Part shown: one piece after another, positions 8,094 through 59,808 of the stretch
Layout of the letters: the number at the start of each line of letters is the position of its first letter
Position numbering within the stretch: the first letter of the stretch is position 1
NCBI GenBank assembly: GCA_964016885.1
Contig: OZ024742.1
Span: 340,628,001 to 340,692,000, forward strand
DNA length: 64,000 nucleotides
Direction: 5' to 3'
Source: Eledone cirrhosa
Lineage: Eukaryota
The notes under the pieces: model-generated
The model's database searches: none
What the model was told of the DNA's origin: nothing
The model's input: only the letters and a program-made list of their open reading frames with translations
Made by a program: the position numbers and the translations under genes

Positions 8094-8360
8094 TTAAAAT
8101 AACAGATTAAAGTTTAAGCAAAGAATCGCTGCTTTCACCCTTAACGGGATCTTCTGAAACTAAAAAAAATTATTTTTAGTTTCAGAAGATCCCGTTAAGG
8201 GTGAAATCAGCGACTCTTTGCTTAAACTTTAATCTGTTCTTGATGAAGGACTAGCGTCCGAAACGTTAAAACCCTCTCCCTGCTATATCAAGCGTGAACT
8301 GAATATATCCTTTCCCTATACTGTACCGATTGTGTTGTTATTTCTGTTTACCTTTTACAT
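8094..8360. mobile_element. Palindromic PLE-type end between (TA)n tracts
   Basis: Arms ~8101-8166 and ~8174-8238 are inverted repeats. The right arm continues into TTGATGA-A-GGAC[tagc]GTCC-GAAA-CGTT, a hammerhead-like motif. The left arm recurs at 37844-37918 and 40290-40362. Confidence 0.75.
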
Positions 8361-8566
8361 ACATATATATATATATATATATATGAAATACGTTCCTTCA
8401 CGCACAAGGCGCCAAGGTACGCATGACCTACCTCCTTTTGCCTCTATCTTTGCTACGGCCCTTGATAAACCTGTTCTACATCATCCACTCTCATCCCAGG
8501 AACAGTTTTTGATAGTGCTAGTTTGTGATTTAAATTCAGGAATTTTATATTCTTTGAATGAAAAGA

Positions 8567-8650
8567 ACCTTCTGACGAGAATCTTTCTTTGCAACGAAGG
8601 CCGTATGGTCTCCGTTTTATTTTTGGGATTCGAAACCGATCGGTAAAGGT
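8567..8650 (+). ncRNA. Type I hammerhead ribozyme, long stem-II loop
   Basis: ACCTT-CTGACGA-GAATCTT[~39 nt]GGGATTC-GAAA-CCGATCGG-TA-AAGGT: intact core, 5-bp stem I, palindromic stem III and a GUA cleavage triplet. Confidence 0.8.
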
Positions 8651-9529
8651 AACTATAGTAGGTAAAGTCAATTTTTTTAAATTTATTTTGAAACTTTTTC
8701 ATTATTTACTAAACCTTGTTTATATATATATATATATATAGTTCCAGTTCAATGGAATAGCTTGCCCGTGAAGTTAATATGTAAGCAGCTAAGTATTCCT
8801 GTGACACGTGTGTATATAACGTAAGCCTCAGATACATTCAGCGTGGCAGAGTGTGTGATGAATCTGGCCTTTTGAATTACAGCTACAGTCCATCTGACAG
8901 ACTTGGATTTACATAATTTAACACACGGGGCTTGGGTCAACCCGTGACTATCGTAACTGACATTTGCCGGCCCAGCCATGCTGTGAGATCAAGCTTAGAA
9001 CCTCAAAATTGCCAAACGTACTTAACTATTCAGTCCTACTGTGTCCATAATCGAGTTGCACGATGTTTTTCGTTCAGTAAATATTATTTTCCCGGCTTTA
9101 GTATATTTTTTCACGTTCCATGAATTAAATATATTTATATGTACTATTATTTACCTAACTGTTTATCTGACCTATCGTGTCTCGGGATTATTCAATGTTC
9201 CATGAATTAAATATTCTGACACCCGTTTACCTGCTGATAGATAATCCATTCAGTCAATCTCTTATTTTTTGACACTTTTACTCAATAATATATCCAGTGT
9301 TTACCCTTGTAGCAGTCATGCTCAACACAACACCGGTGTTGGTTTACATCAACACAACAGATGTTTCGGGCCACAAACAGTCAAAATATTACGTGACTCA
9401 TTTTTCGTAGAAAAAGAAAAAAACAAACAAAGTGTATTGAATATCGAACCTGATCCGTTGCAGACGAGAAATGGCCAAAATAAACGCTATGAATATTATT
9501 TTTATTATTATTATTGTTATTATTATAAT

Positions 9530-10190
9530 TGAAGGCGGTCGTTTGGAAGTGTCGGTAGAGCGTCAGACGCCATGCTTTGCAGCATAGTTATGGCCTTTTG
9601 CGTTCTGAGTTCAAATCCACCGAGGTTAACTTTGCCTTTCATCCTTACGAGGTCGATAAAATAAAGTACCAGTGGTGCACTGGGGTAATCGCTGGTCTTG
9701 TGCCAAAAGTAGGAAATTATTATTGAAGGCGGTGGATTGGCAGTATCGGTAGGGGTCGGACGCCATGCTTTGACGCATAGAGTTACGGCCCTTGCCATTC
9801 TGAATTCAAATCCCGCCTAGGTTACCTTTGTCTTTCATCCTTACGAGGTCGATAAAATAAAGTATAGGTCACGCACTGGGATCGATTTAATCGACTTTCC
9901 CCTCCCCCTAAAATGGTTGGCCTTGTGCCTAAATCAGAAACCATTGTTGTTGTTGTTGTTGCCGTTGTTGACGGCGGTGGATTTGCAGAATCGTTAGGGC
10001 ATCGGATAAAATGGTTTGTGACATTTAGTTACGGCGCTTTACTTTCTGAGTTATAAAGCCACTGAGGTCTTCTTTTGCTTTTCATCTTTCCAGAGTCGAT
10101 AAAATAAAGTACCAGTCACGTACTGAGTCTATGTAATCGACTTTGTCCCACCCCATAAATTGCTGGCCTTGTGCTTAAATTAGAAAGCTT
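9530..10190 (+). mobile_element. Three tandem head-to-tail SINE copies (~9530-9720, ~9725-9945, ~9970-10190)
   Basis: Each starts with GGCGGT(G/C)G.TT(G/T)G and contains the B box and core; copies are separated by (ATT)n or (GTT)n. Confidence 0.85.
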
Positions 10191-57832: not shown

Positions 57833-57990
57833 ACCCAGTGCATTACCGGTACTTTATTTTATCAACCGCGAATGGATGAAAGACAAACTTGAACTTAAGC
57901 AGGATTTGAACTCAAAATTCATCAGAAAGAACCAGAATTAATACCACAAGACATTCTGTTGTTCTAACGACTCTGCCAGTTCATTAAATG
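57833..57990 (-). mobile_element. Diverged SINE
   Basis: CCCAGTGCATTACCGGTACTTTATTTTATC..GGATGAAAG..GGATTTGAACTC. Confidence 0.7.
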
Positions 57991-58279
57991 TGTTACTACT
58001 ACTACTACTACTACTACCACTACTACTACCGATACTACTACTACTACTACTACCACCACCACCACCACCACCACCACCACCACTACTACTACTACTACCA
58101 CCACCACCACTACTACTACTACTACTACCACTACTACTACCGATACTACTACCACCACCACCACCACCACCACCACCACCACCACCACTACTACTACTAC
58201 TACTACTACTACTTCTTCCACTTATTCTTGTGAGGGTCGTGGAAGTAGAGCTTTCAAACACTTCTTTCAACGGGTCGTA

Positions 58280-58520
58280 TCACAGCCAACCGTCTCCAAC
58301 TGATCCAGCTGGATCCCCAAGTGTGACCAGTCCAGCTCATGGATGTTATCCGATCATCTTGCTTGTGGTTTTCCCCTGGGACTCCTGCCGGTAGGGTTTG
58401 CCCGTAAAATCTGTCCAGTGATTGTTTCCTGGGACATTCTAACATCATATCCGTAATATCGGGGCTGTGATCTCTCAATTCGGAGAAGAGGTGGGGTGGG
58501 GATACTCACAAGCGTCCGGC
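58280..58520 (-). pseudogene. RTE-type LINE ORF C-terminal fragment
   Basis: IERSQPRYYGYDVRMSQE..QILRANPTGRSPRGKPQAR resembles the RTE motif QLRWxGHVxRM...GxRPRGRPxxRW. Confidence 0.7.
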
Positions 58521-59492
58521 TATCAGAATGTTTTATGGACACCTGTATTAAACCATCTAAAATACCTGTAGGTACCTATACCACATATATTACTTGAGAG
58601 GACGAATAAAATTACCATATTGGCTAGCGTATTGCACGCACTTTTGTCCACAAAAAACATAACAAATCTTCCGTGCGTCCAATACGCCCATATCACCGAT
58701 GGGAGGCCAAACGGAGGGTTAAACAAATTTAGTTTGTATTACTATTAGAATAAGTCTGTCTCAAGCCAGTGTTTATCCCGGTTTCGTTGCGTGAACTGAG
58801 AGAACAATACATCAGTCTATCACAGAGGTTATCACAATCGATTACAATATTAAAAAACAAATATGAATAAATTTGAGAGAAAATTTATAAACTTACATTA
58901 AAAAATTACATTCAGAGGATTTAGCTGCGCAGCCAAGTGTCCACAACGCAAGAAGGGGTCTACAGGTGACACAAAACAGTTCCCCGTGGTAAATCCAAAA
59001 TGAAAGTATCGGGAATTTCCGTAAATAAATAAAAAAATTGGTAATTTTTTTCCTTATATTTTAACCATTTTATTTAGAATGTTGATAAAATTTGAGTAAA
59101 TTTATTTTTAAAAGCATTCGCTGGAGTTTGCTATGAAATAATTTTTTTCTAGATCCACTCAACACGTGTGTTTTAAAATAATCTCACCTACAACATGCTC
59201 ACGAGCTACTCCCCTGCCCCCGAAAAAAAACCTTACTTGTGAGAGATGTGAAGGACCCTCATATTTTCTATGTCTGGGAAATTTCTTCGGGGGGAGGGGT
59301 CACATTTTTTCCAGAGATTATTTCGTTAGTTTTCGACTGATCTGACATTCCACTCACTCGTCAACGATTCCTTTTCCCACCCCACCCCGAAAACGGATGC
59401 GAGAAGAGAAGGGAACCTCGGAGTTACACACACACACACACACACACACACACACACACATATATATATATATATATATATATATATATATA

Positions 59493-59808
59493 CATTTCGT
59501 TTTTGTATTTCTTTTACAAGATTTCTTATCTGAAAACGTGTGTTGAAACAGATATTGTTGTAGTTTGGGCGGGTCATGCTGCCAATAAGACACACAGCTC
59601 ACAAAGATAAGATGGTTTAAGACAGTACAAAGAAGAGATACAAAATAACAAATTAATCACTGAGGTCACAGAATGTGTGAAAAAAGAGCTTTGACAATAA
59701 ACAAAGTACGAACCGGTTATTAAACTAACCAACTGGAAATTTGTAATAGATTGAAGTGAATACAAGAGATGCGTGAGGATTTTATTGGCAGCATGACCCG
59801 TCCAAAGT
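59493..59808. mobile_element. Diverged tails-out doublet of PLE 3' ends
   Basis: 59493-59598 is the reverse-complement terminus; 59600-59808 is a sense end with a decayed hammerhead (CTGA-GGTCACAGAATGTGTGA..GAGCTTTGAC) and TTATTGGCAGCATGACCCGTCCAAAGTAT. Confidence 0.7.

Follow-up and report, generated by a model that had tools for sequence, protein, structure and literature searches.

The 64-kb window analysed here (37% GC, dense in (TA)n), from the 3.0-Gb assembly of Eledone cirrhosa, contains nine loci at which repeat copies, identified in family A as Penelope-like elements, are inserted head to head in (TA)n and bear a tail at one end only. In the reading that we favour, with a probability of about 60%, both ends of the cut target prime reverse transcription at two fixed sites of one RNA and the two complementary DNAs (cDNAs) are then joined; as for its parts, priming from both ends is highly probable, and the use of a single RNA for both arms rather likely. 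An earlier note on this DNA had listed nine inverted loci and had proposed that both ends of one break prime in a symmetric fashion. Self-comparison and direct reading find inverted arms, or a tail with a short inverted stub, between TA-rich tracts at 9/9 places, with 94-100% arm identity at eight of them and a tail with decayed stubs at 39421, and priming by both ends is the best reading of the arm anatomy. However, the one-sided tail had been overlooked, and the units are therefore not symmetric: one end carries a tail of 60 nt (family A) to ~160 nt (family F), the other none, and the two ends occur 1:1. The head-to-head form had been called the typical and most frequent Penelope structure, with antisense self-priming as its proposed origin (PMC3846280), and the inverted copy, the one-sided tail and the (TA)n bias are described, and the mechanism called undefined, in PMC8557442. 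Thus, the arrangement itself is known, and the contribution of this work is a quantitative case on the unsettled insertion step.

The nine loci fall into six repeat families, with four loci belonging to family A, the only one in which an open reading frame (ORF) fixes the polarity. Its 778-aa frame shows reverse transcriptase (RT) motifs at residues 79, 228, 357 and 402 and endonuclease motifs at 675-721, all invariant in 33 homologues, together with linker Cys 652-660, Cys 668/679 and His 706/721, i.e. the CX2-5CxxC linker and the CCHH set. By the motif definitions of PMC8557442, family A is a C-terminal-endonuclease Penelope-like element of the Neptune/Nematis type. Pfam matches among the 33 homologues are RVT_1 in seven and GIY-YIG in four, all weak (best E 2.5e-4); the window protein itself matches RVT_1 only, with E 0.01, and a Pfam search of the window ORF at E 0.01 found nothing. 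A search of solved structures returned three weak RT matches, none of them a Penelope structure, and the closest named protein match is from Octopus vulgaris (67% identity). A putative minimal hammerhead core with a 6-bp stem II was found by motif scan at 31711, 48176 and 48297, and lies 194 nt upstream of the shorter 3′ end; among the 150 Rfam matches listed of 278 there was no hammerhead, only spurious microRNA matches.

Family A has two fixed 3′ ends, 60 nt apart, the ATG lying 24 nt before the first, and a 7-nt word containing ATAT is common to both. Furthermore, 416 copies continue past the second end into the ORF, and several of the 22 examined keep the frame open for hundreds of codons (up to 534, to the locus edge), the N-terminus of the continued ORF being similar, by eye, to that of homologue P0020. 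Since the frame stays open past the second end, both ends lie inside the start of the ORF, and the tail corresponds to codons 9-28. At least 8 nt of TA are present on both flanks in 74/87 units. The Penelope-type origin claimed earlier is thus established for family A, which combines an ORF for RT and C-terminal GIY-YIG, a pseudo-long terminal repeat (pseudo-LTR) or partial tandem with tail, a hammerhead and an inverted 5′-truncated copy in an AT-rich target. Three further observations concern its ORF and tail: a long asparagine/threonine-rich insert upstream of RT (L111:2500-3100, L092:780-1400) recalls the N-rich inserts of PMC3846280; L005:1023-3231 is a head-to-head, retrozyme-like array of five ~500-bp units, each with pseudo-LTR, tail and 133 nt more of ORF; and L202 (contig C1 132947034-132947570) is a 46-bp tandem minisatellite made from the family A tail and the following ORF bases.

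Throughout the genome, exact patterns (for which reversed-pattern controls gave 0) count 12,634 tail-less family A ends in TA and 12,151 tail-bearing copies, with 9,952 tail ends in TA; the two end types of family D number 7,287 and 6,989. The two ends of family A are used about 1:1 and are paired one of each. Indeed, within the first 43.5 Mb of contig C1 (199 ends), 55 neighbouring ends within 7 kb comprise 41 tails-out, 6 tails-in and 8 tandem arrangements, as compared with 1.6, 1.5 and 3.1, respectively, under random placement, so that the excess of tails-out pairs, a check set beforehand, is found; a tail-bearing end is paired with a tail-less one in 35/41 tails-out pairs. For families B1, C, D, E and F (181 stretches, 0.9 Mb), 73/89 neighbouring matches have the tails-out arrangement, 56 of them combining the two end types, with ~6 repeats from overlapping loci still counted. 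In these five families, polarity was assigned from three features: ends that are fixed and adjoin TA, inner ends that vary, and motifs that are hammerheads or resemble them. The motif is a clear hammerhead in family C, hammerhead-like by eye in B1, E and F, and doubtful in D. In the hammerhead-like cores of B1, E and F (8180-8215, 43890-43910 and 47690-47725), position 4 is, by eye, apparently changed from U. The tails-out geometry is real and genome-wide.

The anatomy of family A was read in 85 consecutive tail-less ends from 80 stretches, with arm reaches entered by hand from alignments to the natural copy L111. An inverted tail arm stands head to head at 63/85 (two pairs are duplicated blocks, and the tail of L107 rests on ~5 nt); the other 22 consist of 9 single arms between TA tracts, 6 that run into other DNA, 5 with an inverted partner without visible tail and 2 that lie next to a gap or edge. 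In 16/63 there is no overlap between the arms, as the tail arm stops within the tail, and hence no palindrome arises. One such mini form at one hot spot occurs 329 times genome-wide, with ~17 junction spellings, by eye, among the 100 listed, in keeping with the variable junctions foreseen earlier. Arm lengths were compared in a pool of 72 units (44 loci with both arms of at least 20 nt, plus 28 units from 38 tail-anchored stretches, single-arm and complex loci being excluded): the tail-less arm is longer in 31, the tail arm in 21, and both stop within 15 nt of each other in 20, against a mean of 4.7 and a maximum of 14 in 20,000 permutations. The excess of tail-less-longer over tail-longer forms (19 vs 13, p 0.38) is not significant. 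A hot spot of arm ends lies at 240-279 nt, where 37 of the 124 arms reaching 240 nt stop (262 arms in all), with 2/126 just before and 0/87 just after it; both arms end there in 952 strand matches, most loci being counted twice. The hammerhead cut site was considered as a source of arm ends and rejected, there being no peak at 140-179 nt. Microhomology of 2-3 nt is seen at 12 of 31 clean junctions (4.9 expected, P 0.002), and a further 15 show none or carry a 1-2-nt insert.

Whether the two arms share one RNA bears on a rival, which we regard as rather unlikely, in which both ends prime, but on two RNAs bound by a dimer, one per start site. Such dual priming accounts for the 1:1 pairing, for non-overlapping arms and for either arm being the longer, and it accords with the weak correlation of arm lengths (Spearman 0.26, p 0.08); moreover, a dimer is predicted for the anole protein (PMC11167929), and dual priming has been put forward for L1 (PMC2837659). 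However, it does not predict joint stops at arbitrary places (20/72 vs 4.7) and, alone, leaves the choice of a different site on each RNA unexplained. In the 22 loci with at least 150 nt of overlap, divergence is 1.5% between own arms and 4.8% to the arms of other loci (own lower in 21/22), a difference that persists at loci with a much longer tail-less arm (L086, L103, L136). At L103, own arms differ by 2%, as compared with 10.7% to the nearest other locus, and rare variants are common to both arms, which also speaks against two RNAs. The shared variants and coupled stops thus favour one RNA.

A quite unlikely alternative dispenses with the second primer: one cDNA started at the tail site would fold back, copy itself towards the target, be cut at the tail boundary and later lose part of its centre. 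Fold-back of this kind yields identical arms and a surplus of near-perfect palindromes, and native palindromes are present at some centres; long palindromes are also known for losing their centres. The attribution of the tail to endonuclease resolution of an intermediate by Craig et al. (PMC8557442) counts in its favour as well. It predicts, however, a tail arm at least as long as the other, whereas the opposite is seen in 31/72 and no overlap in 16/63. Absence of overlap rules fold-back out altogether, save for a later deletion of the centre, and the offending forms also occur at loci with nearly identical arms (L071 0%, L086 0.5%). Hot-spot palindromes with 0-1-nt centres, either arm being 1 nt longer and no native hairpin lying at that site, also argue against it. 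Since any second arm made by fold-back must lie within the extent of the first, whereas tail-less-longer and non-overlapping forms exist, the arms were most likely primed separately, each at its own end of the break and from its own start site. The 28-kb locus of the window is of the tail-less-longer kind, in which the long tail-less arm cannot provide the tail and the short tail arm cannot provide the long arm.

Self-priming on antisense RNA, published as a hypothesis for rotifer Penelope elements on the basis of junction palindromes (PMC3846280), finds an echo in the mini-palindrome at 31033-31083, but is very improbable here, as it accounts neither for two fixed start sites on the sense strand, each next to the target, nor for arms that fail to overlap, and the template in vitro is sense RNA (PMC11167929). 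Least probable of all is that the palindromes move as finished units, either like miniature inverted-repeat transposable elements (MITEs) or as read-through transcripts, or are fold-back artefacts of assembly or library: some junction strings do recur, junctions are shared by L140/L144 and by the two L138 copies, and none of the listed reads spans the window's own centres, but L140 and L144 have flanking repeats in common and hence form a duplicated block, the arms differ by 1-6% and one has a tail, and raw reads of two other samples contain left-arm-to-right-arm joints of family A (e.g. 48003 to 48449, 81 and 105 reads, with 2 start places each). Among 20 loci chosen for recurring junctions, the same string is found with the tail on either side (L211 and L214 vs L212 and L213; L226 vs L227), from which it follows that palindromes do not move as units; MITEs, which the earlier note had named as one case that would undo its model, were rejected on this ground and on those of unequal ends and many junctions.

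Two-ended priming on one RNA would start with the GIY-YIG domain nicking both strands of the self-complementary TA tract; one 3′-OH would prime at the downstream site, yielding the tail arm, and the other at the upstream site, yielding the tail-less arm, while the ATAT at both start sites could pair with the primer. If the downstream enzyme stopped short of the upstream site, non-overlapping arms would result, as in a classical twin-priming inversion; if it displaced the other cDNA, the arms would overlap; and if both cDNAs ran off the same RNA 5′ end, a near-perfect palindrome would form. The centre would be closed by joining of the ends over 0-3 nt of microhomology. Displacement of the leading cDNA would fall to the trailing enzyme; these RTs are not known to contain RNase H. 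In favour of two-ended priming, a Penelope-like protein (Poseidon, from green anole) cuts and extends both strands in vitro, with two start sites that bound the tail (PMC11167929). We would only tentatively go further and see in two-ended priming the normal rather than an accidental route of insertion: a dimer bound to a single RNA would start each DNA end at its own programmed site, the two sites being 60 nt apart, and the trailing enzyme would displace the other strand. Tail, inversion and palindromes would then stem from one mechanism, and the hot spot of arm ends, 250-268 nt upstream, would mark the transcription start of the element. As a guess, the 240-279-nt hot spot may be the RNA 5′ end; around it lie motifs that we take to resemble YY1, NRF1 and ETS sites.

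Several points weigh against two-ended priming on one RNA. A single active source that supplied two RNAs, or later conversion of one arm by the other, could also make the arms similar, and the evidence comes entirely from finished insertions. Symmetric junctions at native AT-rich palindromes (L071b, L074, L119, L149) are places where fold-back is possible. The reading of the 240-279-nt hot spot as the RNA 5′ end is weakened in that none of the 22 ORF-continuing loci starts there and 12 pass it. Given the single arms (9/85) and those running into unrelated DNA (6/85), two-ended products are not the sole outcome. Lastly, the hairpins were sought in raw reads with a mixed result: family A joints are present in the two other samples, but the window's own centres are spanned by no listed read, the 31-kb junction lying outside the read check.

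It had further been suggested that the insertions extend the (TA)n tracts. Target-site duplications, of which L002 is one clear case, number 8/87 as compared with 0.39 in shuffled loci, yet 7/87 falls within the 5-11 obtained in controls shifted by 6-14 nt within each locus; as they do not exceed the shifted controls, tract extension is not supported. As a separate observation, units of different families are stacked end to end in one TA tract at many loci (e.g. L001, L021, L029, L066, L163), each insertion supplying a new target.

Table 1. Anatomy of the nine loci in the window (positions within the window; nt, nucleotides; UTR, untranslated region).
Feature	Position	Strand	Evidence
Family B1 head-to-head hairpin, right arm ends before its normal end	8098..8241		68/72 matches; family ends in other copies
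Family B2 3′ part, hammerhead-bearing, fused to B1 hairpin at 8241	8241..8362	+	upstream DNA differs in 13 other matches; motif scan
Family C, first unit: left arm with tail, right arm tail-less and longer, with hammerhead at 25322 (+)	25058..25420		91/94 matches; motif scan
Family C, second unit: left arm tail-less, right arm with tail	25443..25628		32/32 matches
Family A tail-less arm, 2.7 kb, 5′-truncated	28271..31006	-	alignment; longer natural copies exist
778-aa open frame: Penelope-like RT, CX4CxxC linker, C-terminal GIY-YIG endonuclease	28670..31006	-	motifs, homologues
Extra 53-nt junction piece, local mini-palindrome, extends 29 nt past 5′ end of tail arm	31004..31056	-	alignment
Family A arm with tail, comprising endonuclease end, 3′ UTR and pseudo-LTR; minimal hammerhead core 31711	31060..31900	+	830/841 to left arm
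60-nt one-sided tail (ORF codons 9-28); ATG 24 nt before tail-less end	31901..31960	+	ORF-continuing copies
Family A mini unit with tail on the left and decayed arms of ~20 and 17 nt (7/7 only)	39421..39520		alignment
Family D unit: tail-less arm left; tail-bearing arm right, split by minisatellite 43130-43277	43043..43385		28/28 at 43063-43128; family counts
Family E unit: minisatellite cuts the left arm, right arm reaches the tail-less end; no tail visible	43753..43991		79/84
Family F unit: tail-bearing arm left, 160-nt tail 47192-47353; tail-less arm right	47192..47772		193/202
Family A unit: left arm with tail (266-nt reach, at 5′-end hot spot), right arm tail-less (240 nt)	47925..48487		231/237
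Older family A unit: tail and 40-nt arm left, tail-less arm ~269 nt right	59493..59808		alignment

The boundaries listed earlier for these loci (table 1) stand in part. The large unit at 28271-31960, with its 2.7-kb tail-less arm, 0.9-kb tail-bearing arm and extra 53-nt piece, is borne out (830/841), as is 47925-48487 (231/237), a family A unit that carries hammerheads at 48176 (-) and 48297 (+). Two loci had been mis-bounded: 8094-8360 is a composite of the B1 hairpin and the 3′ part of B2, and 25103-25582 resolves into two adjoining family C units, 25058-25420 (91/94) and 25443-25628 (32/32). The units at 43.0 and 47.3 kb had been given without their tails; in the former, 43063-43128 is one part of a family D unit (43043-43385) whose tail lies beyond the minisatellite. 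As to polarity, which had been derived from ORF, hammerhead strand or homology, the ORF holds for family A, but the 8-kb locus had been oriented by another family's hammerhead: the one at 8240 belongs to B2 and, therefore, gives no orientation to the B1 hairpin.

A tenth, unlisted locus is present at 41416-42100, where a family A tail arm is joined to a 449-bp palindrome (41541-41989, 185/193) of an E-related family, whose right arm continues to 42100. The segment 43000-44978 is repeated at 45480-47350, across a gap of 200 N, with 96-99% identity, which may reflect a tandem duplication or two haplotypes placed side by side. Among the other repeats, the 3′ end of a different Penelope-like family lies at 2201-2802 (-), with a GIY-YIG Pfam match (E 2.8e-5) and relatives at 3 loci examined. 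Two related L1/Tx1-like long interspersed element copies, 76% alike over 3.4 kb, occupy 13230-18170 and 19249-24236 (+), the latter having a 1204-aa open frame that encodes endonuclease, RT and zinc-finger domains. A ~190-bp dispersed repeat of 80-96% identity, probably a short interspersed element, recurs at 937-1114, 4010-4103, 4671-4866, 9534-10186, 24550-24883, 32808-32998 and 40402-40537.

How inverted one-tailed Penelope insertions are formed is stated as unresolved in PMC8557442 and PMC11167929, and the more than 12,000 near-identical family A copies of this genome are enough to separate models. They speak against both single-cDNA fold-back and antisense self-priming, provide a concrete two-site, two-end model that is testable in an existing in vitro system, and imply that one animal genome harbours tens of thousands of loci able to form hairpins. 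The literature searched, in which older key papers are incompletely covered, contained no paper applying two-ended priming to Penelope elements, and the portions consulted of PMC12910113, PMC13282606, PMC8969392, bioRxiv 10.64898/2026.07.22.740005 and 10.1101/2024.12.14.628481 held nothing decisive.

Family A resembles, in the first place, the EN+ Penelope-like elements of Arkhipova et al. (2013, PMC3846280) and Craig et al. (2021, PMC8557442) in head-to-head inversion, a tail at one end, a pseudo-LTR plus tail that code for the beginning of the ORF, partial tandems, a bias to (TA)n, an asparagine-rich ORF insert and a hammerhead in the pseudo-LTR. The tails are, however, longer here (60 nt in family A to ~160 nt in family F) than the 30-40 nt given there, the inverted form is the majority (63/85), and those papers, in the parts consulted, invoke antisense self-priming or endonuclease resolution rather than two-ended priming. 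The hammerheads are like the minimal ones of metazoan Penelope elements (Cervera and de la Pena 2014, PMC4209133), being of type I, with a minimal core, and located in the pseudo-LTR; opposite-strand pairs with a spacing of 100-700 bp had already been noted in that work, and the cut site predicted in family A, ~160 nt upstream of the tail-less end, is no hot spot of arm ends. With Poseidon in vitro (Frangieh et al. 2024, PMC11167929) family A shares nicking and extension of both strands, as proposed here, an AT-rich target and two start sites within the ORF bounding the tail. It differs in clade, having a linker zinc finger, and in that paper, in the part consulted, the two sites are not tied to the two ends of one inverted insertion, and no difference in start site between the strands was seen. 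Finally, as in L1 twin priming and the proposed dual priming (Meyer et al. 2010, PMC2837659), a second nick would prime a second cDNA, with head-to-head arms and little microhomology at the joint. Of the non-overlapping inverted arms and flanking target duplications of L1-type twin priming, family A shows the former in 16/63 only, and its target duplications do not exceed the control in TA tracts, with one clear case (L002). In L1, twin priming accounts for a minority of insertions, the internal site varies and the arms do not overlap, whereas in family A the two sites are fixed, poly(A) is absent and overlap of the arms is the usual state.

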